Source: Acidobacteriota bacterium
GTDB taxonomy: Bacteria > Acidobacteriota > Thermoanaerobaculia > Gp7-AA8
Assembly (NCBI GenBank): GCA_019244185.1
Contig: JAFATB010000026.1
Coordinates: forward strand, 32,001-96,000
DNA length: 64,000 nucleotides
Direction of reading: 5' to 3'
In this document: positions 417-34,285 of the stretch, one piece after another
Position numbering within the stretch: the stretch's first letter is position 1
How the letters are laid out: each line of letters begins with the position of its first letter
Program-made: the position numbers and the translations under genes
Notes under the pieces: model-generated
Database searches by the model: none
What the model was told of the DNA's origin: nothing
The model's input: the letters and a program-made list of their open reading frames with translations, nothing else

Positions 417-2624
417 TCAGGTGTTGGCCGCGGCGTGCATGCGCGTGGCGTTCGCGTAGGCTTCGAGCCATTCCGGGCGGAAGCCCGGCGGCGGCGCGGA
501 CTCGCTCCAGCCGCTCGGGCTGAGGAACGTCCCCGCGTCGAAGCGCCACGTGTTTTTTCCGTGGCGGACGTAGACGAAGAGATCGCCGCGATCGTCGACA
601 CGCAGCAGGCGCTGGCCGCGGCGCAGCGCCTGGCGGAGAAACGCCGCGTCCTCGCCGAGGTTGATTTCGGGGAAGCGGATGCCGTTGCTCCAGATCGAGC
701 GGCGGAAGACGACCGTGCCGCCGGTGACGTCGCCGGCGAACATCGTCCGATGCAGCGAGCCGCTCACGGTCCAGTACTTTCGCTGCGGCAGCTCGAGCAC
801 GAAACGGTTCACGAGCCCCGTGACGTCGGCGTCGCCGTTGAGAATCGGCGCGACCTGGCGCTCGAGCCGGCGGTCGCCGTACCAGTCATCGTCGTCCCAC
901 AGCGCCACGATCTCGCCGCGCGCTTCCGAGCAGCCGACGTTGCGTTTCGCGCCGATGCTCGTGCGCTTGCCGACATGGATGTAGCGGATCGCGGGTTGCT
1001 CGGCGAGCAGCTCGCCGACGTGGTCGTCGCCGTCGTCGATCACAATCAGCTCGCGCGTCGGATACGTCTGCCGCCGGAAGCACGCCAGCGCGAGCGGGAT
1101 GAACGCGCGGCGGCGGAACGTCGGCATGACGCACGAGACCAGCGGGCGGCTCGGCGGCGAGCCGGCGGCGATGAGATCGCGCACGCGCTCCACGCGCTCG
1201 GCCGACCAGAACATGCCGCGCGTTTCTTTCGGACTGACGTTGCCCGGATGTACGGCGGCGACGAAGAGCGTCGGGTCTTTGAGATCGGCGATCTTCGCGT
1301 GACGCGTGCGCCAGAGGAACTGCGTGTCTTCGCCGACCTGCACGTCGACGAAGCGATTGCGCTCCCAGAACGCGCGGCGATAGAGCATGGTCGTGCCGGC
1401 GACCCACGTCGCCGTGCCGCCGGAGTAGCGATACAGATACGCGCTCTCGTGCGCGCGGTCGTAGAAATAGAGCACGCTGCTGCCGCAGATGTCGGCGTTG
1501 CGCTCGCGCAATGCGGCGACCTGCACGCGCACGCGCGACGGCGGATACCAGTCGTCGTCGTCGAAGTGCGCGATGAGCGCGCCGCGCGCCTGTTCGCACG
1601 CGAAGTTGCGTTTCGCGCCGACGGTGAGGCGCGAGGGGAGGCGGAAGTAGCGGATGCGCGGATCGTCGGGAATCAGATCACCGACGGCGTCGGTGCCGTC
1701 GTCGATGACCAGGAGCTCGACATTCGGATAGTCCTGCGCGAGGAAGCCGCGGATCGCGTCGGGCACGAACGCGCGCCGGTCGTGCGTCGGCATGATGCAG
1801 CTGACGAGCGGCAGGTCGGCGTCGAGCTGCGTGCCCGGCGGCGGCGCGAAGTTCGGACACGCATCGCCGCGGCAGTGCGCGCGGTAGTCGCGCTTCTCGC
1901 CGCGCAGCCGCGCGCCGCAGAACTTGTCCTGATAGCGGCGCTTGTTCGCCTCGAACCGCGCGGACTCCTCCCGCGCGCGCTGCGGCGTCACCGGCGCACG
2001 CCAGACGTACGCGCCGCAAACCCACAAGCCGTCGAAGCCCGCGCGTGCGGCGCGGACGTTGAAGTCCATCTCCCAGCACGGCCCGTTGCCATACGACTCG
2101 TCCGCGCCGCCGATCGCCTCCCACGCCTCGCGTTTCACGGCGTAGCAGAAGTCGCCGAGCGAATGGAGCGGCGCGAGCGAGCGGGTAAGCGTGCCGAAGC
2201 GGGAGGCGGCGTCGCGCGCGGTTTCGTCGACGTTCTCCGAGGTCGCGTCGCCGAACAAGCCCTGCTCGTTCCAGTGCCGGTTCGTCGACGGGCCAGCGAG
2301 ACCGGCGCGCGGCGAAGATTCGAGCGCGGCGAGGAGTTGCTCGATGCAGCGCGGGCCGACGAGCGCGCCGGGCTCGAGGAAAATCACGATTGCGGCGTCG
2401 GTGCTTCGCACGAAGCGATTGAACGCAGCGGCTCTTCCGCGGCTCTCATCCGGCAGCACGCGATGTTCGAGCGCGGTCAACGTGCGGCGTGTCTCGGCAT
2501 CCGCGCCGTCGGGGATCACGATCAGCTCGTGCGGAAGCGGCGTATTTCGCGCGATGCTGGCCAGCGTCGCCAGCAAGCGGTCGGGATCGGTCTGAACATG
2601 AGCTCCGATGGCGATCTTCTGCAT
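417..2624 (-). CDS. Multi-domain glycosyltransferase family 2 (three GT-A modules)
   Basis: Two repeats of PLVSC(I/V)MPT..RRAF....QxYP..ELxVIDDG...GAKRN...(F/W)DDDDWY, plus an N-terminal GT2-like module (GGADESYG..WEMDFNVRA). Confidence 0.9.
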   Translation of the reverse strand: MQKIAIGAHVQTDPDRLLATLASIARNTPLPHELIVIPDGADAETRRTLTALEHRVLPDESRGRAAAFNRFVRSTDAAIVIFLEPGALVGPRCIEQLLAALESSPRAGLAGPSTNRHWNEQGLFGDATSENVDETARDAASRFGTLTRSLAPLHSLGDFCYAVKREAWEAIGGADESYGNGPCWEMDFNVRAARAGFDGLWVCGAYVWRAPVTPQRAREESARFEANKRRYQDKFCGARLRGEKRDYRAHCRGDACPNFAPPPGTQLDADLPLVSCIMPTHDRRAFVPDAIRGFLAQDYPNVELLVIDDGTDAVGDLIPDDPRIRYFRLPSRLTVGAKRNFACEQARGALIAHFDDDDWYPPSRVRVQVAALRERNADICGSSVLYFYDRAHESAYLYRYSGGTATWVAGTTMLYRRAFWERNRFVDVQVGEDTQFLWRTRHAKIADLKDPTLFVAAVHPGNVSPKETRGMFWSAERVERVRDLIAAGSPPSRPLVSCVMPTFRRRAFIPLALACFRRQTYPTRELIVIDDGDDHVGELLAEQPAIRYIHVGKRTSIGAKRNVGCSEARGEIVALWDDDDWYGDRRLERQVAPILNGDADVTGLVNRFVLELPQRKYWTVSGSLHRTMFAGDVTGGTVVFRRSIWSNGIRFPEINLGEDAAFLRQALRRGQRLLRVDDRGDLFVYVRHGKNTWRFDAGTFLSPSGWSESAPPPGFRPEWLEAYANATRMHAAANT

Positions 2625-2642
2625 GGCCGTTCGTTCCGTCCA

Positions 2643-3362
2643 TCAGGTGAAAAAAAGAACGTCGCACGTTGGCGAGCCCGCCGCGCCGCGGCGGAACGTG
2701 AACTCGAATAGCGCGTACAGCGACACGAGATCGGCGAGACCGCGGGAGCGTGACAGCATCACCTGTGGAACGAAGTCGACGAAGCCTCGCCAGAACAGTG
2801 CATGCGCGGTCACCGCGGGCAATCCGCGCACATCGCGCAACAGCGCGCCGAAGACGCTCGAGCTGTCGACGGGGAGGTCACCTGCGAGCGTCTCCGTGAA
2901 GGGCTCAGCGGCTTCGAACGTCGAGGTGTCGCCGGCTGCACGGCGTTCCCATTCCGGTGCGCACGACGGGTTGCCGGCGATGAGGTCGTGATGGATCTGC
3001 TGCGCGGGAGAGCCATCCACCGCCACTTCGCGGAGGAAATACTGAAAGAGAAAGCGCTCCGCCATTTCGTCGATGGGGTAGGCGATGAAGCGCCTGCATG
3101 GCGTGTCGGGTGCGAAGCAGTCGGCGCAGTCGCCGGCGGCCTGCTCGAACTCGTTCAACGTCTCGACGAGCGAGAGATACGAAACCTCGGCGTCACTCTC
3201 GCCCGGCACCTGCAGCACGAACGTTTCCCGCTGTTTTGGGTCCGGCACCATGCTTTCCGCGGCGCGGCGATAGGCCTGCAGCTTCATCACGCCGGCCCAC
3301 TCTTCCTCCGACATCTGGGCCTGCAGTCCGCAGCCGAACCAACTGATCACGTCGATTCCCAA
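2643..3362 (-). CDS. Hypothetical protein with CxxC-x6-C motif; candidate toxin-associated/immunity protein
   Basis: Open frame. The TTG start at 3362 (MGIDVISWFGCG) follows an AGAGG RBS-like sequence right after the upstream stop. Contains CADCFAPDTPC. Start uncertain. Confidence 0.6.
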   Translation of the reverse strand: MGIDVISWFGCGLQAQMSEEEWAGVMKLQAYRRAAESMVPDPKQRETFVLQVPGESDAEVSYLSLVETLNEFEQAAGDCADCFAPDTPCRRFIAYPIDEMAERFLFQYFLREVAVDGSPAQQIHHDLIAGNPSCAPEWERRAAGDTSTFEAAEPFTETLAGDLPVDSSSVFGALLRDVRGLPAVTAHALFWRGFVDFVPQVMLSRSRGLADLVSLYALFEFTFRRGAAGSPTCDVLFFT

Positions 3363-3370
3363 CGTTCCTC

Positions 3371-4381
3371 CTACTGTTCCACCGTCAGCTCGTTGCGGCA
3401 GCCGATGCCGCGGAGTTGCTGGCGCGCACAGTCCCACGCGGCGTCGACGCGCTGCCGCAGAAACTGCTCGTGCTCCTTCGCGAGTGCGATCGTGGGGGCC
3501 AGTTGCAAAACGGTCGTGCACGTGCCGCCCGCCAGTGCCTTTTTGATCGAGCTCGCGTTTTTACGGCGCGCCGGTCGCAGGAGCTCGGCGGTCAGATGTT
3601 TCGAAAGGAAGCGAGTGACCGGCGCGGCGGGATCGCACCCCGCGTCGAAGGTTCCCTCGCCGGAGATCTCCAATTGCAACGAGCACGCGGTGTCGTCGAT
3701 GCCTTCCAGTCGCGGGCCATCGCAGGTGAAACGAGGTTGGTCGCCGGCGAACAAGAGCTCGTCCGTGACCGCGAGACGATCGTGCAGTAATTCGCGAGCG
3801 GTGGTTTTGGCGCGGCGCGCGATGGTTGCGAGCGCGCAGACGAGCGGCGCGACCGTCACGGCATCGCGGCGCACGAGATTGCTCTGAACGGCGAGCGCCA
3901 CCGCATTCGCGGCCATTTCCACTTGCCCCGGCTCGGTGCGGAGAAGCGACAGCATCTCGAACAGGTACACCTGTTCGGTCTCGCGATACGGGCGCGCGAG
4001 CGCTGCCTCGATCCAGCGTTGCCGTTCGTCTTTTCCGCGCGTCATCGCGACGGCGAGACCGGCCATCGTGACGTCGATGCTCTCCGCGGCCTGATCGATG
4101 GGCGGATCGAGCTTCCGCAGTTCGTCCGACGCATCGCGCCCGGCCAGCTCGCGGAAGGCGAGCAGTTCGATGTGGTCGACCGCGGAAGCGCCTTCCTGCG
4201 CAACCGCCTCTTCTGCCGCCGCTTCGTTCCAGCCTGCCGGCAGCGGCTCCGATTGTCCGGTGAGCACGCGAAACGCGGCCATCGCGAAAAGGTTCCACGT
4301 CTGCGGCGCGGTGGCCGGCTTGACGACCTTTTCGAATCCGGTGGCCAGCTTCGCGATCAGCTCTTTTTTTCGTTTCATCAA
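3371..4381 (-). CDS. Helical hypothetical protein, candidate immunity protein
   Basis: ATGA overlap with the toxin-like gene stop. 336 aa, Ala/Leu/Glu-rich, no recognisable motif. Confidence 0.65.
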   Translation of the reverse strand: MMKRKKELIAKLATGFEKVVKPATAPQTWNLFAMAAFRVLTGQSEPLPAGWNEAAAEEAVAQEGASAVDHIELLAFRELAGRDASDELRKLDPPIDQAAESIDVTMAGLAVAMTRGKDERQRWIEAALARPYRETEQVYLFEMLSLLRTEPGQVEMAANAVALAVQSNLVRRDAVTVAPLVCALATIARRAKTTARELLHDRLAVTDELLFAGDQPRFTCDGPRLEGIDDTACSLQLEISGEGTFDAGCDPAAPVTRFLSKHLTAELLRPARRKNASSIKKALAGGTCTTVLQLAPTIALAKEHEQFLRQRVDAAWDCARQQLRGIGCRNELTVEQ

Positions 4382-7300
4382 TTTGCCTTCGTCTTGATTT
4401 CGGCATCGCGGATGTTCGCCGCGACCGCGCCGCGGGCGCTGCGGAGCCGCGCCACGAGCGCCTGCAGCAACGCGACCGCCGCCGCTTTTGCGTCATCGGA
4501 GAATTTTGCGTTCCTGCGCATCTCCACGGTGATCTGCAACGTTCCTGCTTGCCCGCTCTTCAGCTGAGCGACGATCGCGGCGATCTCCGGCGGCATGTCT
4601 TCGCCAATGATGCCGAGCATCTTCGCGAAATTCTTGTCGAAGTTCTCCGTGATTCCGGAGAGCTTGTTTTCCAGCGGCTTGCCGCGTTCGAGCGCGGCGG
4701 TGCCGGCCACGATTGCGGCGGCATTCGCTTTCAGCGCCTCGATTGGCTTGCCGTGGCCGACCGGAACGGGGATGGCCTTCTTTCCGGCGGGGATGCCGGT
4801 GTTGCCGCTGCGGCGGGCGATGATGGGCATGGTCTTGTTGAGCTTCGCGCCGCCTTTGAGCTCGAAGATTTCCAGCATGTACGTCTCGTTGCCGGCGGCG
4901 TCGCGGATGATGTGCAGAAACGCGGCGTCGATGCCTTTGCCGCTCTGTGCATCTCCGCCCTTCGTCGGCAACACGATTCCGCCGCCGGCCGCCGCGAGCA
5001 CCTGCAACTCGGCGCGCTTGACGGCTTCGATGGCATCGCCGACCGCCGTGTTCGTGCCCTTCGCTTTGATCACCGCATCGAGCTGCGCGACGGCGTCCGC
5101 CAGCTCCTTCTCGGCGACGTCTTTCGCTTTCTTCAGCTTGTCTGCCACCGACGTGAGGTTGAGCGCCTCGGTCGTCTCGGTCTTTTCCGGATTGACCTTG
5201 CCACGAACGCCCCACTTCTTTCCCTGCTCCACCAGCTCGAGCGACTGCAGCCCGTAGCGGATGCGGATGGCGGCGAGGATCGGCTTGAGGATCTTGCTGC
5301 CCACGCCTTTACCCGCGAAGCGCGCAACCGCGCCTTTCGAAGCCTGCATGGCGTCGTCGAGCTGTTTCTGTTTCGCCTCGGGCGCCGTACCCCCCTTCCC
5401 GAACAGCTTCTTTACGAACGCCACGATCTTTGCGATGGCCTTGTCGATCGCGGCGTCGACCTTCGCCTGCACTTTGGCGATGAAGTCGCGGATCTTCTGG
5501 GCGATGCCGCCGAGGCCGATCAGTCGGGCGAGGAAGCCGATGAGGATCGGGACGGCGTTGCCGAGAGCTTGTTCGACGCGCTTGATGGCGCCGCCGATGG
5601 CGCCGGTGGCGATGGCGTGGATCGAGTTGATGACGCTCTCGACGAACTCCATGATCTGCGCGGCGCGCTCGACCACGAACATGACGATGTTGTAGATCGC
5701 CATGATGGCCTGCACGATGGCGCCGGCCGGGTTGAACATCGAGAGGATCTTCGTCACGGCCTGCTTGACGATCGTGTCGATGATCCACGTCTTGATGGCC
5801 TCGATGACCATGTCCTTGAGGTTCGACAGGTCGGTCTTGACCTGTTCCCACAGCGCCGCGGGGCCGCCGCGGATGAGGATCAGGACGTACTCGATCACCT
5901 TCTCGATGATCTTCATGTTCCGCTCGCCGATGAGCTTCACGGCCTTCGCGCGCATGCTCGCCGCGCTGATGCCGAGGACGCCCATGACGAGCTTGAAGAT
6001 CGAGACGAGCGAGAGGTCCGCGGGGATCTCGACGCCCGGCGGGAGGTTGCCGAACAGCCATTTCTTGAAGCCGTTCGAAAGGTGCTGCTTGATGTTGCCG
6101 ACGAAGGCGCTGATGCCGCCCTTCACGGCGCTGATCAGATTGCCGAGGAAGCCGAGCGGGTCGGCGATGATCAGCTTGATCGTGTCCTCGCCCTTCTGGA
6201 GGATCGCCTGCAGCCGCGCCTTGAACTCGAGGATGGCCTTGAGCACTTCGCCGAGTTTTTCGGCGAACGCCTGCACGAGTCCCTTGTTCTCGTCCTGAAT
6301 CGCCTTGAGCGCTTCGTTGGCTTTGTCGAAGCCCTCCTTGTATTTCTGGGCGAGCGACTGCGCGAGGGAGTTCTTCTTCTCCTCGATCCCTTTCTCGAGC
6401 TCCTGGAAGCGGTTGTTGACGTCGGACGCGGCCTGCTGCGCGAACTGCTGCAGGTCTTTCGGCTGACTGGCGACGTACGCTTTAATGTCGGCCTGACCCT
6501 TCGCGACTTCCTGCTTCGCTTCCTTGAGCCGCTGCTCGACGAGGTTCGCCACGCGCACGATGAGCGCGTCCATCAGCCCCTGGAAGAGCGCGCGTCCCGC
6601 GTCGTAGATGACGTTCACTTCATCGGGCAGACCTTTGAACTGATCGCGGACCCACGCGGCGAGGCCGAGGAGCGGAATGGAGAGGTAGCGGCGGATCTTG
6701 AAGTCGCGGATCTTCGCGTTGACGAAGTTCGTCATCGCGGTGAGGGCCGCATCGACGCCGCGGTCGAAGATGCCGTTCACTTCGCCGTCGATGGCGGCGA
6801 GCTTCGCGTCGACGCGCGCCTTGGTGGCGTTGTAGATCGACTCGATCTTGTCGGTGACTTCCTTGCGCTTGGCCTCGTCTTTCGCTTTCTGTTGCTGCTG
6901 GCGGGTGAGGACTTTCGCGTTACCGCCGGCTTTCACGCCGACCATCGCGGCGGCGCCCGCGCGCGTGGCGCTCGTCGCGCCGGAGACGGTCGCGGTGAGC
7001 GTGGCTTTCTCGGCGGCGCGGTATTTTCCGGGACCGCTGTCGGCGTTCTGCGCGACCTGGGTCTTCGCGTCGAGCACGGCGGAGAAGCGCGGATCGTTCG
7101 CCTTCTTGAGCTGCGTCGGCGTGACTTCCGCGTCTTTCAGCTGCGCGTCGGTGTCCTGCTTCGAATCCTGGAGCGAGACGTCGGCGTCGCTCTTCGGCGC
7201 CGGCATGCCTTCGGCGGAGTTGACGTTCGGCGCGGGCGGCGCGCCTTCAGGCGGCAGCGGCTTCTCGGCCTTCGCGTCGCCGGACGGCGCGGGCGCCGCT

Positions 7301-7713
7301 TTCGACGCGCCGGAAACGTCCTGCGTCGACTTGTCTTTCTGCTGCGAGACGTTGCCTTTGAGACCGCCTTTCATCTGCTGCGCGGTCTGGTCGAAGTTCT
7401 CGGTCTCGCCGAGGTTCTTCGGCATCGCCTTCGCGATCTCGGCGCGGAGGATGGCCAGGAAGGAGCTCTGTTCGGGCTTGCCTTCCTTCGCCTCTTTGAT
7501 CTTGTCGACCTGCTTCGCCTTGCCGCCGGCGAGCTTCTCGTTCGGCGGACCTTTCGACGCGGCCGCGGCGTCGGCGGCTTTCTTCGAGGCCGGCGGATGC
7601 GTCTTCGTTTTCGCCGCGCCTTGTTTGAGCTGCTCCATGACGCGCCGGTAGCGCGGATCGGATTCCGGCGACGGCTTCGGCAGCGGCTTGCGGCGAAGAG
7701 CGGCTCCGGGCAT
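4378..7713 (-). CDS. eCIS-associated polymorphic toxin-like effector: long coiled-coil/hydrophobic carrier plus PD-(D/E)xK-like C-terminal domain
   Basis: Start MPGAALRRK at 7713, 2 nt after the ATPase stop. Core KILSMFNPAGAIVQAIMAIYNIVMF resembles eCIS cargo/phage-tail-like proteins. Linker ...GKVNP is followed by GKGIDAAF...LEIFELKGG. Confidence 0.7.
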   Translation of the reverse strand: MPGAALRRKPLPKPSPESDPRYRRVMEQLKQGAAKTKTHPPASKKAADAAAASKGPPNEKLAGGKAKQVDKIKEAKEGKPEQSSFLAILRAEIAKAMPKNLGETENFDQTAQQMKGGLKGNVSQQKDKSTQDVSGASKAAPAPSGDAKAEKPLPPEGAPPAPNVNSAEGMPAPKSDADVSLQDSKQDTDAQLKDAEVTPTQLKKANDPRFSAVLDAKTQVAQNADSGPGKYRAAEKATLTATVSGATSATRAGAAAMVGVKAGGNAKVLTRQQQQKAKDEAKRKEVTDKIESIYNATKARVDAKLAAIDGEVNGIFDRGVDAALTAMTNFVNAKIRDFKIRRYLSIPLLGLAAWVRDQFKGLPDEVNVIYDAGRALFQGLMDALIVRVANLVEQRLKEAKQEVAKGQADIKAYVASQPKDLQQFAQQAASDVNNRFQELEKGIEEKKNSLAQSLAQKYKEGFDKANEALKAIQDENKGLVQAFAEKLGEVLKAILEFKARLQAILQKGEDTIKLIIADPLGFLGNLISAVKGGISAFVGNIKQHLSNGFKKWLFGNLPPGVEIPADLSLVSIFKLVMGVLGISAASMRAKAVKLIGERNMKIIEKVIEYVLILIRGGPAALWEQVKTDLSNLKDMVIEAIKTWIIDTIVKQAVTKILSMFNPAGAIVQAIMAIYNIVMFVVERAAQIMEFVESVINSIHAIATGAIGGAIKRVEQALGNAVPILIGFLARLIGLGGIAQKIRDFIAKVQAKVDAAIDKAIAKIVAFVKKLFGKGGTAPEAKQKQLDDAMQASKGAVARFAGKGVGSKILKPILAAIRIRYGLQSLELVEQGKKWGVRGKVNPEKTETTEALNLTSVADKLKKAKDVAEKELADAVAQLDAVIKAKGTNTAVGDAIEAVKRAELQVLAAAGGGIVLPTKGGDAQSGKGIDAAFLHIIRDAAGNETYMLEIFELKGGAKLNKTMPIIARRSGNTGIPAGKKAIPVPVGHGKPIEALKANAAAIVAGTAALERGKPLENKLSGITENFDKNFAKMLGIIGEDMPPEIAAIVAQLKSGQAGTLQITVEMRRNAKFSDDAKAAAVALLQALVARLRSARGAVAANIRDAEIKTKAN

Positions 7714-7715
7714 GG

Positions 7716-11472: not shown

Positions 11473-11484
11473 CCGAGTTCCCGT

Positions 11485-13623: not shown

Positions 13624-13636
13624 GTGACGTTCTCCT

Positions 13637-14827: not shown

Positions 14828-14841
14828 GCGCTCTCCTTCGT

Positions 14842-16089: not shown

Positions 16090-16098
16090 GACGCGCTC

Positions 16099-22408: not shown

Positions 22409-22416
22409 GACGTTCC

Positions 22417-22809
22417 TCAGCCTCCGAGTTGCACGCGCAGCGAAACCTGCGCGGCCGCGCGCGTGGCGACGAGCTGGTAGTTGACGGTGGCCACCGCGCT
22501 CCGCGGATCGCGCGGGTCCTCTTCGACGTCCACGCTGCTGATGACGATCCTCGGCTCCCACTGCTGCAGCGCGCGCGTGATGCGGTCCTGGATCTGGAAG
22601 CGCGTGGTGACGGTGTTCGGCTCGAAGAGGAACGTGCGCAGTCCGCCGCCGAACGTGGGGAGATTCAGCCGCTCGCGCTCTTCCGTGCGCAGGATGATCT
22701 CGATGTTCTCGCGGATGTTCGCCTCGCCTTCGCTCCACGCGAGACGCCCATCGGCGCCGACGCGCGGCGGGAACGCGATGCCGCGGCCGTAGAGATCGCC
22801 CGGCGTCAC
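22417..22809 (-). CDS. GPW/gp25 baseplate protein (Afp9-like)
   Basis: GRGIAFPP...ILRTEERERL..PTFGGGL...LFEP...WEPRI. GTG start at 22809 overlaps the upstream stop. Confidence 0.9.
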   Translation of the reverse strand: MTPGDLYGRGIAFPPRVGADGRLAWSEGEANIRENIEIILRTEERERLNLPTFGGGLRTFLFEPNTVTTRFQIQDRITRALQQWEPRIVISSVDVEEDPRDPRSAVATVNYQLVATRAAAQVSLRVQLGG

Positions 22810-24677
22810 GGTCCCACCTCCACGCTCACGTCGAGCTTCGCGTCGAACTTCGGCAGCGGCAGGCAGATCTGGAAGAAGGGGAGCCAGAAGAAGACGATGT
22901 CGAGCAGCTTGATGAAGATCATCAGCATGATCAGCGCGCAGATGGTGATGATCGGAATCGAGAGCGAGCAGACCATGCCCGCTTCCATCCCTCCGTCCGT
23001 GCACGGCGACGGACTGACGTCGAGGTCTTTGTGCAGCGGCCACGGAAGGACGGAACGAATGAGATCGCCGAACGAGAGGCCGCGAATGGCGCTGACCTGG
23101 CCGCAGAGGACGTCGGAGAGGACGAACGCGGTGTTCTTGTCGAACTTGCGCAGGCCCGCGGGCGTGGTGTCGGCCGGCATGGGGATGCGGATCGGCCGCG
23201 CGGGCGCGTCGGGATCGAAGAAGCCGGCCATCTGAAACGCGGCCGTTGGGTCGCTGACGACGGCGGGCTTGAAGGACGCGCAGTTCGGCCGCTCGAACAC
23301 GCAGCGCACCGCGAACCACGGCGACCGATGCGGCGTGACGTTGACCTGGGCGACGGTCCGCGGCGCCATCGTCGCGACGCCGGGCAGCGGCTGATCGAGA
23401 GCGGCCACGAGCGTGCTTTCAAATGACTCGCGCAGTGCCTTGCCGGTGAGGCCCGTCGGACCGCCGGCGCTCGCGTGGACGAAGCGGAAGCGCATCGACG
23501 GCCAGCCGGAAGGACTGCTTTCGTGAAAGACGGTCTTGACCGTTTCGAGCTGTTCGGCCGACGCGCGGATTTGTTTCAGCGCGGCGACGAGCGTCATGGT
23601 GTCGGAGAGCGAGGCGAGCTTCTGATATGCGGCGAGCTTCGTGCCGCTGAGACCCGCGGACGACTGCGCGGTGATCGCGTTCCAGACGTCGGCGAGGTTC
23701 TCTTTCAGCCACGCGTCGAGGTCGAGGAGGATGTACCAGGAGACGGTCTGCAACTGGTCGTTCGTCGTCGCGAGCGTTTTGTCGCGCTGGGCGTTTGTCG
23801 GCGGATCGTCGACGGTGGCGATCTGCTGCACGGCGAGCGAGGCCGCGTCTTCGAGGTTCGACCACGGACCGAGGACCTGGGTCTTCAGCATCATCTGCCG
23901 CGCGTCGAGCGGCTTCTGCGCGGCGCTGCTGCTCCCGGGATCGGGCATCTTCGCGGCGAGGAGCGCCTCGCGCTTCGCGACCGGAATGAGGCCGTTGAAC
24001 ATGCGGCGCCGGCGGCCGTCGATCTCCTGATACGACAACGGCGAGAGCGGGTACTGCGTCTCGCCGTCGACGAGCGAGCTTGCGTCGCCAGCCGGCTTCC
24101 ATTCGTCGCCGACGAGCGCGAGCTCGCTGCACTGGCTCGGATCGGGATTGATCGCGGCCGCGCCGGCGTGCGGCTGCAGCATGCGGATGACGAACGTCGC
24201 GCGCTCCTGCTTCGTGGTGTCGAGCGCGCGGTCCGGAAGACCCAACGTGCGGCAGACGAGACACGCGGTGACGAGGTAGTAGCGCTGGTGCGCGGGCTGG
24301 TAGAACTTCAGCGGACGCGTCGTCGCGGCGTTGTTCCAGGCATTCGTGCGTACGACGCCGCTGCGCGCTTCGACCTTGCGCACCGCGGCGATGCGCGCGC
24401 GCTCGAGCGTGCCCGCGAGTCCGGTCTTCGGACGCACGGGCGCGACGTCGGCGGCCGGCTTGCGCCACGTTTCCGGCACCGCGAGAAAGTCGCTGATGCG
24501 ATGCGCGTCGGTCTGCACGACGTTGATGAAGTCGGGCATGAACTCGTCGGTGGCGAAGCGCAGGATCGCGGGCGTGCGGAAGACGCGGCGCTGATCGGCG
24601 GTGGTCGCGCCGTTGAAGTCGTTCCAGAGCGCGGCGGGCGAGGTCCATTCGACGTGTCGTTCCATGGCCATCCTCAC
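22806..24677 (-). CDS. eCIS-associated hypothetical protein with hydrophobic Cys-flanked C-terminal segment
   Basis: 623-aa ORF coupled on both sides. LKFYQPAHQRYYLVTACLVC near the N-terminus. C-terminal MVCSLSIPIITICALIMLMIFIKLLDIVFFWLPFFQICLP. Confidence 0.75.
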   Translation of the reverse strand: MRMAMERHVEWTSPAALWNDFNGATTADQRRVFRTPAILRFATDEFMPDFINVVQTDAHRISDFLAVPETWRKPAADVAPVRPKTGLAGTLERARIAAVRKVEARSGVVRTNAWNNAATTRPLKFYQPAHQRYYLVTACLVCRTLGLPDRALDTTKQERATFVIRMLQPHAGAAAINPDPSQCSELALVGDEWKPAGDASSLVDGETQYPLSPLSYQEIDGRRRRMFNGLIPVAKREALLAAKMPDPGSSSAAQKPLDARQMMLKTQVLGPWSNLEDAASLAVQQIATVDDPPTNAQRDKTLATTNDQLQTVSWYILLDLDAWLKENLADVWNAITAQSSAGLSGTKLAAYQKLASLSDTMTLVAALKQIRASAEQLETVKTVFHESSPSGWPSMRFRFVHASAGGPTGLTGKALRESFESTLVAALDQPLPGVATMAPRTVAQVNVTPHRSPWFAVRCVFERPNCASFKPAVVSDPTAAFQMAGFFDPDAPARPIRIPMPADTTPAGLRKFDKNTAFVLSDVLCGQVSAIRGLSFGDLIRSVLPWPLHKDLDVSPSPCTDGGMEAGMVCSLSIPIITICALIMLMIFIKLLDIVFFWLPFFQICLPLPKFDAKLDVSVEVGP

Positions 24678-25387: not shown

Positions 25388-25388
25388 G

Positions 25389-26462: not shown

Positions 26463-26473
26463 CGCGTTCGTCC

Positions 26474-26665
26474 TCAGTAGGCGGAGAGCCGCAGCATGCG
26501 TTCGTGCCGGCGGCGCGAGACTTTCTCGAGCTCGCGCTCGAGCTCGGGTCCGGACTTCGCCGCGCCGCCGCCGCTGCCTTTCGCATCGCCGCCGGCGCCG
26601 CTCGCGTCGGCCGCGGGCGGCACGGCTTTCGGCTCGATGGTCAAGTCGTTGATTACCGTCGTCAT
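26474..26665 (-). CDS. Small eCIS protein (DUF5908-like position and size)
   Basis: 63 aa: short beta N-terminus, flexible linker, basic helical C-terminus. Lies between the tube initiator and hub. Confidence 0.6.
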   Translation of the reverse strand: MTTVINDLTIEPKAVPPAADASGAGGDAKGSGGGAAKSGPELERELEKVSRRRHERMLRLSAY

Positions 26666-26669
26666 TCGT

Positions 26670-27434: not shown

Positions 27435-27927
27435 CGATGCCTCCGCCGCGCTCGATGGTCATCGACTGATAGGTGAGCTGCAGCTCCTCGATCGCCACGA
27501 TGCCGGCGGCCGCGTTGAGCGCGGGCGCCTTGAGCTTCGTGAGGAGGCATTTGCGCAGCACCCACTTCACGCGCTCTTTGCTGCGGTCGGGTGTTTTCAG
27601 AACGATCGTGGCTTCGCCGCGGAAGTCTTTGCGCAACTGGCTCGGCACCGCGAGCTGCTGCGCGTCGAACCAGTCCCAGAGATCGAGGCTGTTCGCGGTC
27701 ATGCCGCGCTTGAGCGTGACCGTGCCGTAGTTGACCGCGCCGAGGAGCCGGACCTGCGAGACGTTGTTGCCACCTTCGCGGATCGTCTTCACGTCCATCG
27801 TCATCTCGAGGCCGTCGCATTCGGAGAACTGGCCGTTGCAGAGCATCGTGCCGCCGAGGCCCGAGACGGCGATCTGGATCTCGAAGTTGAACGCGTTGAA
27901 GGGATAGACGCTCTTCGCTTCGGCCAT
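27427..27927 (-). CDS. Tail tube protein (T4 gp19-like), second copy
   Basis: YPFNAFNF...FSECDGLE...IREGG.N...VTLKRGM...LWDW...APALNA...VAIEELQL. ATG at 27927. Confidence 0.92.
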   Translation of the reverse strand: MAEAKSVYPFNAFNFEIQIAVSGLGGTMLCNGQFSECDGLEMTMDVKTIREGGNNVSQVRLLGAVNYGTVTLKRGMTANSLDLWDWFDAQQLAVPSQLRKDFRGEATIVLKTPDRSKERVKWVLRKCLLTKLKAPALNAAAGIVAIEELQLTYQSMTIERGGGIDA

Positions 27928-30308
27928 CACGCCACCTCCACGGCCGACGGCGTTTCGCCGCGCTGCACGAGCCGGATGGTGAGGAACGACAGCGGCCGCG
28001 ACGGCGCGATGCGCAGCTCGGCGATGAAGCGGCCGGCGTCGGTCGACTGCGGCGTGTTGATGGTGTCGTCGGTGACGACCTGGAACGCGCTCGACTCGTT
28101 GCGTCCCGCGAACGCGCCGCGCGCGTACATCGACGCGAGCAACGACTCGAAGCCGCGCTTGGCGCTGTTGCGCAGCGCGTCGCCGTGCGGCTCGAACGCA
28201 TAATCGTTGCCCGCGCGCAGCGCGGCGCGGCGCACGAGGATGAGCAGGCGGCGCACGTTGAGCGCCGAGAGATCGGGATCGGCGGAGAGCGTGTCGGCGT
28301 CGAGGCAGAGGAAGCCGGCCGGCTCGTGGCGGATGAGATTCACGGCCGCGTCCTGCAGCGCCTGGCGCGCGAAGACGGGGAGGTTCGGCGTTAGCGCGAC
28401 GACGCCACGCAGCGCCTCGTTCGCGGGCGCGATCCACGCGCCGCGCGCGATCGCCCGTGCGGCTATGACGCCGGCGGTCGCGCCGTCGGGCGTGGTCGTG
28501 CGCAGCGCGCCGTCCTCTTCACGAACGATGAGCCACGGATGCCACAGCGCGCCGTAGCTCAGCGCCTGCGGTTCGATGCTCGCCGCGAGGCTCGCCGTGT
28601 ACGCGATGGCGCGGCGGTCGTCGTAGTGGCGCGGCAGCGAGAGCAGCGCCACGAGATCGGCGCGCGCGGCGCACATGCGCAGCAGCGCGCGATGAATCGG
28701 CGCGAGCGCGGGATCGTCCGTGTCGTCGTCGTCGAGCGCGGTGAAGCCTTCGAGACCGGCGACGTGCACGGCGATGCCGTTCGACCAGCCGCTGGTTCGT
28801 CCTTCGCCGGTGCGGCGCACGCGATAGAAAAAGTCGCCGGCGGCGTGACCGTAGATCGGCAGCGCGCCGGTGGTGCTGATGAGGATCGTGGCGGCGTCGG
28901 AGAATGCGGCGTCGGTCGCCTCCTGCAGTTCGTCGACGAAGCCCGCCAGCCTGTTCCACGTCAGCGTGTAGCTGCCGTGCTCCGGGATCGATGACGTCAG
29001 AATCGGCGGCGGCAGCGGTTCGAGCAGCGCGCAGTCGACGAAGCCGCTCGGTGCCGCGTCCGCGTCGTTGCTCGCGGGCAGCGTGCGCACGGGCGCGTCG
29101 TCATCGGCGTCGCGGAGCCAGCCACGATGCACCGCGTCGGGCGCGGCGAGCATGGTTGCCTCCTCGATGCCGAGGGCGGAGTGGATGCCGCGCAGCGCGA
29201 GGTTCGCCTGATAGCGAAGCGCGTCGGCGCGGTCGAGGAGGTCGCGTGTATCGGCGTCGGCGAGATGTGGATCGAGAAAGAGCGCCGCGCCGAAGTCCGC
29301 GAGGCCGTCGCGTTCGAGCGCGGGCGCGGGGAGGAACTGCGCGGAGGCTTCGTTCGAGAAGAGGATGCTCATGCCGAGCGGCACGTAACGCGCGGCGGCG
29401 TTCTGCGCGGCGAGCGCGAAGCGCGGCGTCGCGGCGTCGCGCCAGAGGTCGGAACGCGTGGCGTCGCGTTGCGCGTACAGCGCGGCGTCGGTGGGCAGCG
29501 CGCTGAACGCGCGCGGATGTTGCGGCGTGAAGCCGAGCGCGGTCGCGCGGAGCGTGGCGTCGCCGGTGCGGACGCTGAGATCGAACGTCAGCTTCGCCGC
29601 GGACGCGCTGCCGGCCGGCGCGCTCACCGGCGCGGCGATCTGCGCGAGCGCCTTCGTCCAGAGCGCGGTGCCGCCGAGGCGCAGTCCGCGCAGCGTGGCG
29701 GAGAGCGGCGAGAGCGCGACCTCGTCGACCGATTCGACGAAGAGATACAGCGTCTCGTCCGCATCGCTCCACGCGAGGCGCACGAGATCGCCGGCTGCGA
29801 CTTCGGTCGTCGACGTCACGGCGACGATGAGCGAGGTGAGATCGGTATCGACGAAGCGCAGCGGCTGCGCGTTGAGATTCGTCTTCACGCGCAGCGCATC
29901 CGACCAGCTTCCCTCCGAGCGCGCGATTGCGATCGCCGGCGTCAGCGCGACGCCGTCGAACTGCATGAGACCGGGGACGACGAACGTGTTCGCGACCGCC
30001 TCGCCGGCGACGCGCACGACCCAGCAGCGCCGTCCGCCGTTGCGGAAGAACGCGCGGACGCACGGCGCGAGCTGCGCGTAACGCGGATCGCTCGCCTGTC
30101 CATTCGTCTGCCGGGGCCGCGGCAGTTCCACGTCGCCGCCGAAGATCATCGCGAACTGCGCGACGTCTTCCACGGCGACGGGAAGATGCAGCGGCCCCGA
30201 CGCGGCGAAGCCGGCGAAGACGGGGATGTCCATGCGAGGCAGCGCGTCACCGAGCGGACGCGCCTGCGCCTCGAACCGAATCCCCGGCAGCGGTCGCGAA
30301 CGGCTCAT
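27927..30308 (-). CDS. Second, divergent tail sheath-like protein
   Basis: Start MSRSRPLPGIRFE (ATGA overlap). FAGFAASGP...VRAFFRNGGRRCWVVRV; WIAPANE; LNVRRL; AFEP; GAFAG...AFQV. Confidence 0.85.
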   Translation of the reverse strand: MSRSRPLPGIRFEAQARPLGDALPRMDIPVFAGFAASGPLHLPVAVEDVAQFAMIFGGDVELPRPRQTNGQASDPRYAQLAPCVRAFFRNGGRRCWVVRVAGEAVANTFVVPGLMQFDGVALTPAIAIARSEGSWSDALRVKTNLNAQPLRFVDTDLTSLIVAVTSTTEVAAGDLVRLAWSDADETLYLFVESVDEVALSPLSATLRGLRLGGTALWTKALAQIAAPVSAPAGSASAAKLTFDLSVRTGDATLRATALGFTPQHPRAFSALPTDAALYAQRDATRSDLWRDAATPRFALAAQNAAARYVPLGMSILFSNEASAQFLPAPALERDGLADFGAALFLDPHLADADTRDLLDRADALRYQANLALRGIHSALGIEEATMLAAPDAVHRGWLRDADDDAPVRTLPASNDADAAPSGFVDCALLEPLPPPILTSSIPEHGSYTLTWNRLAGFVDELQEATDAAFSDAATILISTTGALPIYGHAAGDFFYRVRRTGEGRTSGWSNGIAVHVAGLEGFTALDDDDTDDPALAPIHRALLRMCAARADLVALLSLPRHYDDRRAIAYTASLAASIEPQALSYGALWHPWLIVREEDGALRTTTPDGATAGVIAARAIARGAWIAPANEALRGVVALTPNLPVFARQALQDAAVNLIRHEPAGFLCLDADTLSADPDLSALNVRRLLILVRRAALRAGNDYAFEPHGDALRNSAKRGFESLLASMYARGAFAGRNESSAFQVVTDDTINTPQSTDAGRFIAELRIAPSRPLSFLTIRLVQRGETPSAVEVA

Positions 30309-30760
30309 ACGCGCTCGACCGCCAGCCGCTCGTACGCGATCACGAGCTCTTCCATCGCCGCGTCGTTGCCCTTCGCATTGAGGCCGCCGAGGGTGTACTT
30401 GAGCGGGCGGGCCTCGTTGAGCGTCCAGCGCGCGACGGTGCGATGGTCTTCGCTCTGCAGCTCGACGGTGATCGTGCGGCGCGAGTTGGTCTCGCCTTCG
30501 CGCACCTGGTTGATCCAGTCGAAGAGCGCGGTCGGATTGATGATGCCGCGCTTGAACGTCACGTCCGCGGCCTTGTTCAGGCCCGTCAGCTTGATGACGT
30601 TGTTGTGCGGCGCGTTGCCGACGCGGTAGTCCTGCTGCGCGATCTCGGTCGAGAGACCGGTGACTTCCTGAAAGCCTCCCTGGATCGAACCGGGATCGGC
30701 GCCTCCGCCGAGGTTCACCAGGAAGTTGAACTGCATGTAAGGGCGGTCGCGGTCGGCCAT
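30305..30760 (-). CDS. Tail tube protein (T4 gp19-like)
   Basis: PYMQFNFLV...GFQEVTGL...YRVG...KLTGL.K..DVTFKRG...W...A.P.KY...LNAKGND.AMEEL. AGGAG RBS. Confidence 0.95.
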   Translation of the reverse strand: MADRDRPYMQFNFLVNLGGGADPGSIQGGFQEVTGLSTEIAQQDYRVGNAPHNNVIKLTGLNKAADVTFKRGIINPTALFDWINQVREGETNSRRTITVELQSEDHRTVARWTLNEARPLKYTLGGLNAKGNDAAMEELVIAYERLAVERV

Positions 30761-30772
30761 GGTGTCGTCTCC

Positions 30773-32659
30773 TTAGACCTTGCGATCGGCCGTCCACTGA
30801 CCGACGCGGATGATCACGTACTCGGCGGGGCGGAGCGCGGCGACGCCGACGAGACAGACGAGGCGTCCGTTGTCGAGATCGTTCTGCGTCATCGTCGAGC
30901 GGTCGCACTTGACGAAGAAGGCCTTCTCCGCGCGATCGCCGAGCAGCGCGCCGTTCTGCCACTCGTTGAAGAGGAAGTCGGTGATGGTGATGCGGACGTT
31001 CGACCAGAGCCGCTCGCCGTTCGGCTCGAAGACCGCCCACTGCGTGCCCTTGTCGATGGAGTGCTCGAGGTAGGCGAAGTAGCGGCGGAGATTCACGTAC
31101 TTCCACTCCGGATCGGAGCTCGCCGTGCGCGCGCCCCAGAGGCGGTAGCCGCGTCCCTCGAAGAAGCGGAAGCAGTTCACGCCGAGCGGATTGAGCACGT
31201 CCTGCTGGGCCTTGTTGAGCAGCGTCTCGAGGCCGATCGCGCCGTCGACGACCTCGTTCGCCGGCGCTTTGAACACGCCGCGCTCGATGTCGTTGCGCGC
31301 GTAGATGCCGGCCACCGCGCCGCTCGGCGGAAGGTTGATCTCCTTCTGCGTCACCGGATCGAAGACGGTGATCCACGGGTAGTACAGCGCGGCGTACGAG
31401 GTGTCGATCTTGCCGCGCATGTCGCGCACGTCGGCGATCGACTGCTTGTCGCCGGAGTCGAGGACCGCGATGCGGTAGCGCATGCGCTGCGCGTGCGAGA
31501 TGACCGAGTTGAGGATGGCCAGCTCCTGCGCCGCGCGCGTGGCGAAGTTGAGCGTCGAGCCGGGCGCGGCGACGATGGAGATCTCGTCGATGTCTTCGAG
31601 CGCCTTGAGGCCGCTCTTGGTCTTGTCGTCCGGCGCGCCGCCGTGGCCCTCGTAGTCGTCGACTTCGGGCAGCGAGCCGTCGTCGCCGCCTTCGAGCACG
31701 AAGTCGAAGGAGCGCTCGGCGTCGCTCGACGCCGGATTCTTGAGCTGCTGCGCCATCGACTTCGTCGGATCGGACGGCACGGGCGCGAGGCCGAGGATGT
31801 AGGCGATGAGGGCGAGGCCGTCGTCGAACGCGTCGAGGTTCATCACGATCGGGATCGAGCGCGCCCGTCCCATCGACGGCTGTTCGAGCGCGAACATTGA
31901 CGCCATCGAGTCGTCGGCGCCGTTGCGGCGATGGCGCGCGTCGAGGGCGAGCTCGGGATAGACGAACGAGGCGATGTTCGGATCGGGCGGGAGGACGGTG
32001 ACGGCGGCGCTGATGATCTGCAGCGTGTTCACGCCGGCGGAGAGGTCGTTGGTCGTTCCGCCCTGGCGGATGCGCCACTTCGGCGTGCCGCCGTCAAAGA
32101 ACGACTCGACGAACCAGAAGTCGGGCGCGCCGGCGTTCGCGGAGTTCAGCATCACGACGTCGTTTTCGACGACGCCGCGCAGCGTCTTGGTGGCGGCGTC
32201 GAAGACGTTCGGCCCGGCGTTCAGCGTGATGCGCACGCGCATGTTGCCGCCCGCGCCGGGGAAGCGCGCCGAGACGAGCAGCGCGCCGGTCTGCTGCGAG
32301 ACGCCCACGCCCGGCGGGAACGCGACCGGCGAGTCGAGCGGCGAGGCGTTCACGACTTCCGGCGAACCGCCGCGGAACGTGCGGGCGATGTACAGCCGCT
32401 TGCCGCCGTTCTCGAAAAACATCCGGACGGCGTGCCACATGTAATTGTGGATGGCGCCGCTGCCGAAATCGAGCGGCTGCCGGTCGCCGTAGATGCGCTC
32501 GTATTCGACGAGACCGGTGATCACGTCGGGGACGAGATCGATGGGGCCGAAGCGCGTCGGCCCGATGAACGCGGTCGTGGTCGTGCTCACGCCCTCGATC
32601 GATTTCGAGCGGAACGAGACCTCTTCGACGTAGACGCCTGGAGCTAGATATTCTGGCAT
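30773..32659 (-). CDS. Contractile tail sheath protein
   Basis: MPEYLAPGVYVEEV...FFENGG...ALYYPW...PPSG.VAG.YAR.D..RGVFKAPANE...WGART...WKYVNLRR...WAVFEPN...PAEY. Confidence 0.96.
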   Translation of the reverse strand: MPEYLAPGVYVEEVSFRSKSIEGVSTTTTAFIGPTRFGPIDLVPDVITGLVEYERIYGDRQPLDFGSGAIHNYMWHAVRMFFENGGKRLYIARTFRGGSPEVVNASPLDSPVAFPPGVGVSQQTGALLVSARFPGAGGNMRVRITLNAGPNVFDAATKTLRGVVENDVVMLNSANAGAPDFWFVESFFDGGTPKWRIRQGGTTNDLSAGVNTLQIISAAVTVLPPDPNIASFVYPELALDARHRRNGADDSMASMFALEQPSMGRARSIPIVMNLDAFDDGLALIAYILGLAPVPSDPTKSMAQQLKNPASSDAERSFDFVLEGGDDGSLPEVDDYEGHGGAPDDKTKSGLKALEDIDEISIVAAPGSTLNFATRAAQELAILNSVISHAQRMRYRIAVLDSGDKQSIADVRDMRGKIDTSYAALYYPWITVFDPVTQKEINLPPSGAVAGIYARNDIERGVFKAPANEVVDGAIGLETLLNKAQQDVLNPLGVNCFRFFEGRGYRLWGARTASSDPEWKYVNLRRYFAYLEHSIDKGTQWAVFEPNGERLWSNVRITITDFLFNEWQNGALLGDRAEKAFFVKCDRSTMTQNDLDNGRLVCLVGVAALRPAEYVIIRVGQWTADRKV

Positions 32660-32678
32660 TCGGTTCTCCTCGTTTCGT

Positions 32679-33554
32679 TCAGGGCGGCGACCCCGCCGGA
32701 GTGATGAGCAATGTCGGCGTCGCGCCGCCGCCGGCGTGCGTGGAGAGGCGCAGCTCGCGCCCGAACTGCAGCGTGGTCTGCGTCCACGGCGTCAGCGGCG
32801 AGGTCTCCTCCCACGCCGTCGCGGGCGGCTGCGTGAGGACGTCGACGAGATCGGGAAGCGCGGGTACCGGCGTGCGCCGGCGATAGCGAACGGTGAAGTC
32901 GACCGCCCAGGTCTGCTGCGTCAGCGGCGTGTTGACGCTGCCGGGCGAGCCGAGGGTGATCACGGGCTTCGGATAGAAGAGCGGCAGCATCACGCGGCCC
33001 TGCGCGTCGGCCATTCCGGTGACGAGGCGCTGCTCGCCGGCCTTCGCTTCCACGAGCGCCCACGCCGCGGGCTCGCCGGTCTCCGCGTCGATGAGCTCCG
33101 CGCGCAACACGCCCATGCCGTCCGGCGCGTTGCGCGTCGGGGCGGAGAAGAGCGGGACGAACGGCGCGGCGGGCGGCGAGGTCGCGTAGTCGATGCCGAA
33201 GACGCCGCGATGCGGCACCTCGACGCTGAACCAGCAGGGGAGATACAGCCCCCCGAGGTCGCGCACTTCGACGATGAACGTGCGCGTCGTCTGCGTGGCC
33301 CAGAACGCGTCGTCGCCGTCGCCGTGCTCGACGTCGCGCATCCACGGCAGATCGCGGAAGACGAAGATGCCGGACGGATTGGCGAGGCCGCTCGTGCGCA
33401 GTTCGGGAAGACCTTCGGGATACGCCTGCACGAGGAGCGACGACGACGCGTACTCGCGCGTCGCCTCGTCGCGGAAGCGCACCGCGAGCGGCGTGAGCAT
33501 CGGGACGCGCTCGAGCACGATGACTTCCATGCCCGTGCCCACGTCGACGCTCAT
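32679..33554 (-). CDS. eCIS-associated hypothetical protein (carboxypeptidase-regulatory-like beta domains)
   Basis: Start MSVDVG at 33554 (ATGA overlap). Lies between the cap and sheath genes. Four S-P motifs including C-terminal GSPP. Confidence 0.7.
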   Translation of the reverse strand: MSVDVGTGMEVIVLERVPMLTPLAVRFRDEATREYASSSLLVQAYPEGLPELRTSGLANPSGIFVFRDLPWMRDVEHGDGDDAFWATQTTRTFIVEVRDLGGLYLPCWFSVEVPHRGVFGIDYATSPPAAPFVPLFSAPTRNAPDGMGVLRAELIDAETGEPAAWALVEAKAGEQRLVTGMADAQGRVMLPLFYPKPVITLGSPGSVNTPLTQQTWAVDFTVRYRRRTPVPALPDLVDVLTQPPATAWEETSPLTPWTQTTLQFGRELRLSTHAGGGATPTLLITPAGSPP

Positions 33555-34280: not shown

Positions 34281-34285
34281 CGCGA

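Follow-up and report, generated by a model that had tools for sequence, protein, structure and literature searches.

Ser-Pro tags and operon-end glycosyltransferases of an acidobacterial contractile injection system suggest a cytoplasmic O-glycosylation module

Mycobacteriophages provide the closest described case of phage-type particles with glycosylation genes of their own, and their capsid and tail-tube tails are reportedly modified. The 64,000-nucleotide (nt) stretch of DNA analyzed here (the window; C10:32001-96000 of a 5.3-Mb genome with 67% GC) carries an operon for an extracellular contractile injection system (eCIS) that ends in glycosyltransferase (GT) genes, and four of its particle proteins contain short Ser-Pro motifs (tags) that comparison with related loci suggests could be glycosylated by these enzymes. 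As in the mycobacteriophages, the particle is of the phage type and the GTs are encoded beside structural genes and would act in the cytoplasm (for the mycobacteriophages, as reported by Freeman et al. 2023, Cell Host Microbe). The window system differs in being a tail-only injection system with a proposed four-residue Ser-Pro acceptor in loops of sheath, fiber, and decoration proteins. Close homologues of the window proteins are in Acidobacteriota metagenome-assembled genomes named Thermoanaerobaculia.

Several other systems share parts of this arrangement. The serine-rich-repeat adhesins of Gram-positive cocci are O-glycosylated stepwise in the cytoplasm, on repeated Ser motifs and by several GTs (GtfA/B, then, for example, GalT1), much as proposed here, although their acceptors are long Ser-rich tracts of a secreted adhesin, whereas the particle proteins carry SSP(P/L) in loops, in one to five copies; the similarity of GalT1 to the window GT is that of generic family 2 (GT2) enzymes. 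Mucin-type GalNAc-transferases and the plant extensin and arabinogalactan systems feature a GT-A fold or Pro-flanked Ser/Thr acceptors in unstructured Pro-rich repeats, but operate in the eukaryotic secretory pathway; no specific sequence similarity to the window GT was found in the PDB searches, and the likeness is an analogy only. Maf (MptE-like/DUF115) glycosylation of flagellin is likewise cytoplasmic and directed to exposed domains of a self-assembling filament protein; however, the weak MptE-like match in the large terminal enzymes of six related loci (E 0.005 and 0.055) is below the Pfam cut-off, and the window itself is without such a module. We know of no report of a glycosylated eCIS particle surface, and none was found in the literature searched (main texts), in which the only eCIS-linked GT is an injected toxin. 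This is the Afp18-related toxin of Yersinia ruckeri, an eCIS-associated GT that glycosylates host RhoA after injection and whose gene likewise lies at the payload end of the eCIS locus (PMC10598620). In contrast, the window GTs are of the GT2 type with up to four tandem domains, follow separate toxin and immunity-like genes, and co-vary with tags on the particle's own proteins.

The operon, the tagged proteins, and the GT genes are placed as follows (window positions; aa, amino acids).
417 to 34177, minus strand: eCIS operon, 23 proteins totaling 11,087 aa, assigned with Pfam and NCBIfam
32679 to 33554, minus strand: 291-aa protein with two transthyretin/CnaB-like beta sandwiches, carrying TSPP, GSPG, TSPL, and a C-terminal GSPP
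30773 to 32659, minus strand: sheath 1, 628 aa, with Pfam sheath domains covering residues 351-619 only
32324 to 32347, minus strand: sheath 1 tag ASPLDSPV, residues 105-112, outside the conserved sheath core
27927 to 30308, minus strand: sheath 2, 793 aa, with SPL at residue 200 (nt 29703-29711)
16099 to 17472, minus strand: 457-aa fiber or baseplate-periphery protein with an (SSPx)4 loop
16780 to 16827, minus strand: SSPP-SSPL-SSPI-SSPL tandem tag within the 457-aa fiber
417 to 2624, minus strand: 735-aa soluble GT with three GT2 stretches (GT-A fold; PF00535, 188.8 bits against a cut-off of 23.3)
1 to 411 (C10:31752-32411), minus strand: 219-aa GT2 gene with the fourth GT2 domain, running off the left edge of the window

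Every Ser-Pro motif listed in the initial annotation is present and in place: GSPE and ASPLDSPV in sheath 1, LSPL in sheath 2, the four motifs of the 291-aa protein, VGSPI at fiber residues 115-119, and GSPP at residues 488-491 of the GT. The fiber tag region reads TTSVSSPPSSPLSSPISSPLSASAE, and its repeat (16827-16780) is encoded as TCC TCA CCG CCG, TCA TCG CCG CTT, TCC TCC CCG ATT, and TCT TCC CCG CTC, such that the codons do vary synonymously as had been claimed, with four different Ser codons and Pro always CCG; Tandem Repeats Finder recovers just 2.4 copies of a 12-nt unit with an 82% match. An operon-wide enrichment of SP[PLIV] (Ser-Pro followed by Pro, Leu, Ile, or Val) does not hold up in the window, because the 15 occurrences in 23 proteins exceed the 6.6 expected from the genome rate (Poisson P=0.003) but are explained by the composition of each protein (∼11.1 expected), with 4 of the 15 in a single repeat, and we therefore do not use this count as evidence. 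The distribution within the operon is uneven, with 11 SP[PLIV] in the 2,144 aa of sheath 1, sheath 2, the 291-aa protein, and the fiber (1.29 expected) and 4 in the 8,943 aa of the other 19 proteins (5.4 expected). Grouping these four proteins is post hoc within one genome, and replication was therefore sought in relatives. Genome-wide (4,375 genes called with a codon-usage model built for this genome), the fiber ranks 2nd and the 291-aa protein 4th in SP[PLIV] density among 3,193 predicted proteins of at least 200 aa, and strict tandems (SP[PLIV]xSP[PLIV]) are present in just 3 of the 4,375 predicted proteins, two of which are the eCIS fiber and sheath 1. The third, and sole non-eCIS one, is a 2,029-aa protein (C7:42942-49031) that contains GILSPVGSPLVD.

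The tags are enriched in the same four families among relatives. Of 80 loci with fiber homologues that were examined, 42 are on contigs long enough to be taken for the rest of the operon, and orthologue sets were built for 20 operon proteins across ∼40 operons, with expectations from each protein's own composition. SP[PLIVA] is 2.3 to 4.5 times more frequent than expected in the 291-aa (183 observed/40.6 expected), fiber (202/46.4), sheath 1 (88/33.6), and sheath 2 (172/74.1) families, ratios that measure conservation rather than 40 separate events, as orthologues are not independent. The other 16 families have ratios from 0 (gp25, 0/6.9) to 1.9 (tube 2, 8/4.2), with the larger families at 0.4-1.6. 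The enrichment anticipated in the initial annotation is thus confined, across ∼40 operons, to the four families that it named. Tandem SPxxSP occurs 108 times against 7.9 expected, 32 times in the 291-aa family, 30 in sheath 1, 37 in the fiber, 5 in sheath 2, and 4 in a 570-aa family. The control dipeptides are flat (PS 0.96, TP 1.10, AP 0.98), as are the control tandems (TPxxTP 9/6.5, APxxAP 20/22, PSxxPS 13/7.9), which makes the motif a directional, Ser-specific one rather than a generic linker of Pro, Ser, and Thr. The 889 SP sites of the four families are followed at +2 by Pro in 39% of cases (5-fold over background) or by Leu in 16%, are preceded at -1 by Ser, Thr, or Gly, and show an echo with a period of four residues; 976 SP sites in other proteins have neither this +2/-1 context nor the echo. 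The four proteins carry 3.5-13 SPx per 1000 aa and the remaining operon proteins 0.6-3.3 in 40 of the 42 genomes, the exceptions being an Accumulibacter locus without a GT (G471; 1.5 vs 2.2) and a locus in which the fiber only was counted (G463; 2.0 vs 1.7). The enrichment holds in loci of 46-70% GC from several phyla.

In the models of the fiber and the 291-aa protein, the tags lie in low-confidence loops. The fiber model (predicted local distance difference test [pLDDT] score 73.4) has a body with a tentative resemblance to TssK and the shoulder of phage receptor-binding proteins, followed by a tailspike-like C-terminal beta sandwich, and the Ser-Pro array occupies exactly the segment with values below 50 (residues 215-233). 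The shoulder-type fold matches have middling Z scores in VIA-align (8.2 to 4l92, with a root mean square deviation of 5.6 over 133 aligned residues, 7.0 to TssK 6n38, and 6.8 to 5m30), but are consistent in class; Foldseek gave no match at E<=0.001, the best being to TssK (E 2e-3). The 457-aa fiber and the paralogue-like 415-aa protein score 33.9 and 37.6 bits, in the N-terminal part only, against a cut-off of 370 bits for the CIS13 family NF053767, and are distant CIS13 relatives at most. The fiber family has >1,000 members in the protein database; among the best 120, which were aligned, 117 have one to five SP in the loop (residues 206-236), with 0, 1, 2, 3, 4, and 5 copies in 3, 38, 16, 39, 18, and 6 homologues, respectively, and another SP follows ∼10 residues on in 105. 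Some fiber homologues are ∼340 aa and have no C-terminal sandwich, and others are 540-630 aa with collagen triple-helix repeats (PF01391), which indicates that the distal part is exchanged within the family. Fiber residues ∼279-288 (16590-16650) form a Cys-rich stretch, CGCGGGCCGG, in a low-confidence segment of the model; C97, C134, and C146 are invariant in the family and C284 and C297 nearly so, and the stretch could be a metal or disulfide site.

The 291-aa protein, which has no annotation and is a candidate surface decoration protein, has a model with pLDDT 87.5 whose lowest blocks are residues 121-130, 201-210, and the C terminus, which is where its tags fall; the fold search gave common beta-sandwich matches only, all below Z 8. 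Placement in the lowest-confidence segments of both predicted models favors a loop location, which the initial annotation had raised as a question. SP is kept at the four window sites of the 291-aa protein in 92, 107, 44, and 74 of 120 homologues, and orthologues have SPLxSPL and GSPLGSPL duplications in indel-prone stretches. Most sheath 1 orthologues have TSPIxSPxG within an inserted loop close to residue 173-176, whereas in the clade of the window this insert is absent and ASPLDSPV, QSPLPSPL, or PSPLTSPP is present in a different loop, at residues 105-112. Because the tag is kept while its position differs, the pattern is more in line with a portable tag than with a turn of fixed structure. 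At the residue-200 site of sheath 2, SP is kept in 25 of 38 sequences, mostly as SPP in the orthologues. The GSPE of sheath 1 and the GSPP of the GT linker, both included in the original list, are not conserved among orthologues. The tags of both sheaths are outside the Pfam sheath core, in what would be extra domains, and extra sheath domains are described as lying away from the tube (PMC9230969).

The tags and the GT genes occur together. A strong orthologue of the window GT (E<=1e-50) is encoded in 35 of the 42 genomes on the contig and strand of the fiber, 7-24 kb downstream and at the operon end, and other, unlinked GT2 genes in the same genomes match at E>1e-17. Three of the remaining seven loci end with a ∼1,100-1,600-aa protein that has a weak MptE-like module together with GT2 and methyltransferase domains, sometimes with Caps_synth/DXD domains too; two have only the N-terminal 540-aa module of this large protein (69-80% identical), which in G470 is cut by the contig end; and Solimonas soli has Capsule_synth and GT1/4 at the operon end. 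The seventh, the Accumulibacter locus (G471), has no GT gene and is the only complete locus without enrichment, with zero SPx in the 291-aa protein, sheath 1, and fiber. Overall, 45 of 49 eCIS loci counted close with a GT or GT-like gene, and at least one tandem tag is present in 39 of these 45 and in none of the four others (Fisher P=0.001, a test that ignores kinship among loci and so overstates the evidence). The four loci without a GT (G471, G102, G229, and G127 on C53) have zero SPxxSP and no enrichment, and the co-occurrence anticipated in the initial annotation is thus observed.

In a single-gene BaseJ tree (FastTree, rooted on G102/G229), G471 is nested in the GT-bearing ingroup (SH-like support 0.90 and 0.96), which suggests a joint loss of tags and GT. 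A search for more GT-less loci among three Accumulibacter relatives found GT and tags in all three. The sheath 1 of G471 has a ∼330-aa Ala/Lys/Asp-rich insertion in place of the tag loop. The sister lineage (G102 and G229) has two complete eCIS operons with no GT domain in ∼37 kb and a sheath 1 that matches that of the window over its full length, and its SPx counts (observed/expected) are 1/0.7 and 0/0.7 in sheath 1, 3/1.2 and 2/1.1 in sheath 2, and 0/0.7 in the fiber-like protein; the G127 eCIS, which has no linked GT, has 0/0.6 in its sheath. Across an even sample of 401 genomes of the phylum, a sheath homologue is present in 46 genomes and an orthologue of GT domain B in 8 (including 2 and 1 unpublished genomes, respectively), and the GT is present in all five genomes with the fiber. 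G127 encodes its domain B orthologue on a contig other than that of its eCIS, where the neighboring open reading frames have a few SPP motifs and no tandems, and we conclude nothing from it. Eight sheath-only matches (G232, G322, G125, G158, G131, G095, G391, and G397; SP[PLIVA] 0-2 vs 0.2-1.5 expected) were dropped as controls because no other eCIS gene was recognized within ∼37 kb downstream.

Tags and a GT are also paired in G413, whose eCIS differs in architecture and is built with a single sheath, a Pvc16_N+TIG protein, and a 1,566-aa DUF6519/DUF4815 protein. The last gene of this locus codes for a GT2 protein of three domains that is 50% identical to that of the window over all three, whereas the similarity of the remaining particle proteins to those of the window is much lower (sheath E 5e-64, spike 6e-09, baseplate J 1e-09). 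Tags are present in the sheath (VSSPPSSPLSSS), the cap-like protein (LASPPASPP), and the 1,566-aa protein encoded next to the GT, which has 10 SPx (2.9 expected) and six tandems, for example, LSSPPSSPLSSPLSSPP. The joint presence here, the joint absence in G471, and the counts of 39/45 and 0/4 suggest that the enzyme gene and its putative acceptor tags are gained and lost together, among loci that include non-independent kin.

The initial annotation was correct that GT2 genes close the operon, although 417-2624 is one 735-aa gene with three domains, followed by the separate 219-aa gene, which starts 5 nt after its stop. Domain B (residues ∼268-490) is the part conserved across loci and the sole domain that is in all GT2-bearing loci, and its Asp-rich metal/nucleotide-sugar motif, D94-D97 (DDDD), is invariant in 7 of 7 aligned orthologues. 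The GTs have no membrane-like segment (Kyte-Doolittle maximum of 1.33 in the 735-aa protein), which fits with action in the cytoplasm, where eCIS-type particles are assembled. Searches of the PDB with the single sequence and with a seven-sequence profile gave generic GT2 relatives only, and acceptor specificity is therefore not readable from the sequence; GalT1 (5hea, profile E 8.7e-11) is the only enzyme among the solved relatives that elongates a protein glycan.

We judge it somewhat probable that a dedicated cytoplasmic O-glycosylation module decorates the Ser-Pro tags on the outer proteins of the particle, a comparative-genomic prediction that the enrichment, co-occurrence, and loop placement support. 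The soluble GT2 enzymes at the operon end would O-glycosylate the serine of (S/T/G)-S-P-(P/L) tags, often arrayed with a four-residue period, on the 291-aa protein, the fiber, and the two sheaths, which likely form the outside of the particle. Domain B would add the first sugar, because it is the domain in all GT2-bearing loci, and elongation to a short oligosaccharide would fall to domains A and C and the separate 219-aa enzyme. The outcome would be a glycan-coated particle assembled in the cytoplasm, and the coat may serve stability, solubility, shielding, or target binding. Of the initial suggestion that S-P-(P/L/I/V) may be a sequon for the operon's own transferases, the restricted enrichment, the GT co-occurrence, and the loops stand, the glycan itself is a prediction, and a single-enzyme reading is too simple. 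It is quite conceivable, if a little short of probable, that this is an undescribed type of bacterial glycosylation system in which soluble GT2s read a portable (S/T/G)-S-P-(P/L) tag that is multiplied in different surface loops, with glycan density set by copy number.

If so, it would be the second case, after mycobacteriophage virions, of phage-type structures with their own glycosylation genes, and tail-like particles could tune their stability, stickiness, or target recognition in soil. eCIS particles are both natural weapons and programmable protein-delivery devices, and a compact, transplantable sequon with cognate soluble enzymes would be available for cytoplasmic glycoengineering. The prediction names specific peptides and genes and is thus directly testable.

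We note, however, that several points weigh against glycosylation of the tags. All of the support is correlation, the related loci are not independent, and the GT-less loci number just four. Six loci keep their tags with other glycosyltransferase-type genes in place of the GT2 orthologue, such that several enzyme types, or something else, must recognize the tag, and a reading of one enzyme and one sequon is therefore too simple. Six GT-bearing genomes have no tandem SPxxSP in the proteins counted, although three of these are represented by one or two of the four proteins and G438 has no 291-aa protein. Conservation of SP as such is unremarkable, ranking 175 of 268 dipeptides by the share of sites kept in at least 60% of orthologues, and some conserved SP sites (e.g., fiber residue 117) are in well-modeled regions and may have a structural role. 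For the sheath tags, surface exposure is judged from domain boundaries rather than from a model. The nearest solved relatives of the GT are heparosan and chondroitin synthases, SpsA, and PglI, which are polysaccharide or lipid-linked-glycan enzymes, and the GT sequence gives no hint of a protein as the acceptor.

The main alternative, which we consider unlikely, is that the Ser-Pro arrays are structural, as flexible or polyproline-II-like hinges or contact sites, and that the GTs do another job for the lineage, such as remodeling a surface glycan of the producer against self-targeting or making a polysaccharide for release. The solved GT relatives and the six loci that keep tags with other enzyme types are as this would have them, and the effector is an antibacterial-type nuclease with neighboring immunity-like genes, making self-protection a real need. 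However, a hinge leaves unexplained the restriction to Ser, the asymmetry of SP over PS, and the shift of the sheath 1 loop, and it does not account for the joint absence of tags and GT in G471, nested in a GT-bearing clade, or for their joint presence in G413; the GTs also have no membrane-like segment. Rather less probable is that the GTs glycosylate the particle off the tags, which would have another purpose and be co-inherited in the same operon. Most of the co-occurrence is indeed within one clade, and the unreadable acceptor specificity is compatible with other sites, but G413 shares GT and tags despite its divergent particle proteins and gene order, and G471 has lost both.

It is very improbable that the tags undergo a different modification, such as Ser phosphorylation or Pro hydroxylation, or that they are a compositional artifact of a high-GC genome. 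The window is Ser- and Pro-rich at 67% GC and composition does explain its operon-wide count, but no kinase or hydroxylase family was matched in the operon in Pfam and NCBIfam scans, and the enrichment persists at 46-70% GC with the composition of each protein as the baseline and does not extend to PS, TP, or AP. We give hardly any credence to the multi-domain GT being a second injected effector like the GT domain of the Afp18-related Y. ruckeri toxin, since although it is encoded downstream of the ATPase, the usual position of eCIS payload genes, and such a GT toxin is on record (PMC10598620), the payload slot is filled by a Lys-rich protein with swappable nuclease domains and immunity-like genes, the Pfam and NCBIfam matches are to GT2-type families with no toxin-type GT family among them, the slot in other loci holds a GT with methyltransferase or capsule-synthesis-type enzymes typical of glycan building, and the tags are left unexplained.

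On its gene content, the operon is an Afp/PVC-like eCIS, and its order and further components are as follows.
417 to 34177, minus strand, operon order: Pvc16_N cap-like protein, 291-aa protein, sheath 1, tube, sheath 2, tube, CIS_tube; GPD hub, gpV/VgrG spike, 623-aa membrane protein, gp25, baseplate J, P2-gpI/CIS12-like protein; 457-aa fiber, 415-aa Cis13-like protein, TIG protein, outer-membrane barrel protein, 570-aa protein; AAA+ ATPase, Lys-rich 1,111-aa effector, two small genes, and the three-domain GT2 gene
22806 to 24677, minus strand: 623-aa protein encoded between spike and gp25, with a membrane segment at its C terminus
11485 to 13623, minus strand: outer-membrane barrel protein, with a signal peptide and a C-terminal beta barrel (PF13505, 50.7 bits)
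4378 to 7713, minus strand: Lys-rich effector, 1,111 aa

Two operon proteins match Phage_sheath_1/1C, two tube proteins match Phage_T4_gp19 (116.3 and 94.4 bits), and CIS_tube (89.8 bits), an Afp15-type AAA+ ATPase (93.3 bits), and a Pvc16_N (DUF4255) cap-type protein (94.5 bits) are recognized by Pfam; gp25, baseplate J, P2 gpI-like, GPD hub, and gpV/VgrG spike are all (5 of 5) above their Pfam cut-offs, and CIS12_fam and TIGR02243 are matched in NCBIfam. The 415-aa protein, which is like a paralogue of the fiber, is weakly CIS13-like.

The Lys-rich protein is, from its domain organization, a polymorphic eCIS effector: the N-terminal ∼800 aa are kept among orthologues and the C-terminal toxin domain is swapped (Tox-REase-7, Ntox15, or Endonuclea_NS_2). 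At least one orthologue is accompanied by recognized immunity domains, with Tdi1-like domains following the Ntox15-type effector. The effector gene is in a stretch of lower GC (0.64) with a strong AT skew (-0.24 to -0.30), and the small genes after it (3371-4381 and 2643-3362), which had no Pfam or NCBIfam match, may be immunity genes. The 623-aa protein, with a Kyte-Doolittle value of 2.71 at residue 574, is conserved in all 42 related loci and matches no family, and the barrel gene is found in just 13 of the 42; the barrel protein may act in anchoring at, or release through, the outer membrane. Because the operon codes for both a membrane-segment protein and an outer-membrane barrel protein, a cell-anchored mode is possible.

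A sigma-54 activator gene is located just upstream of the operon, and the interval between it and the first eCIS gene (34178-34285) has several GTAAC(A/G) repeats in both orientations that are possible activator binding sites; inspection by eye only recognized no -24/-12 sigma-54 promoter upstream of the first gene. To the left of the window, on the same strand and after the GT genes, C10:23881-31662 (read by eye without a family scan) codes for proteins of 634 aa (KAS-III-like), 204 aa (Cys- and Thr-rich), and 775 aa (reading like a kinase fused to a lanthionine-cyclase-like domain) and for a desaturase-like membrane protein, and may be a peptide natural-product cluster. The segment at 52000-60000 has a lower GC content (0.58-0.60 vs 0.67) with minus-strand genes at 52063-59153, and may be an acquired island.

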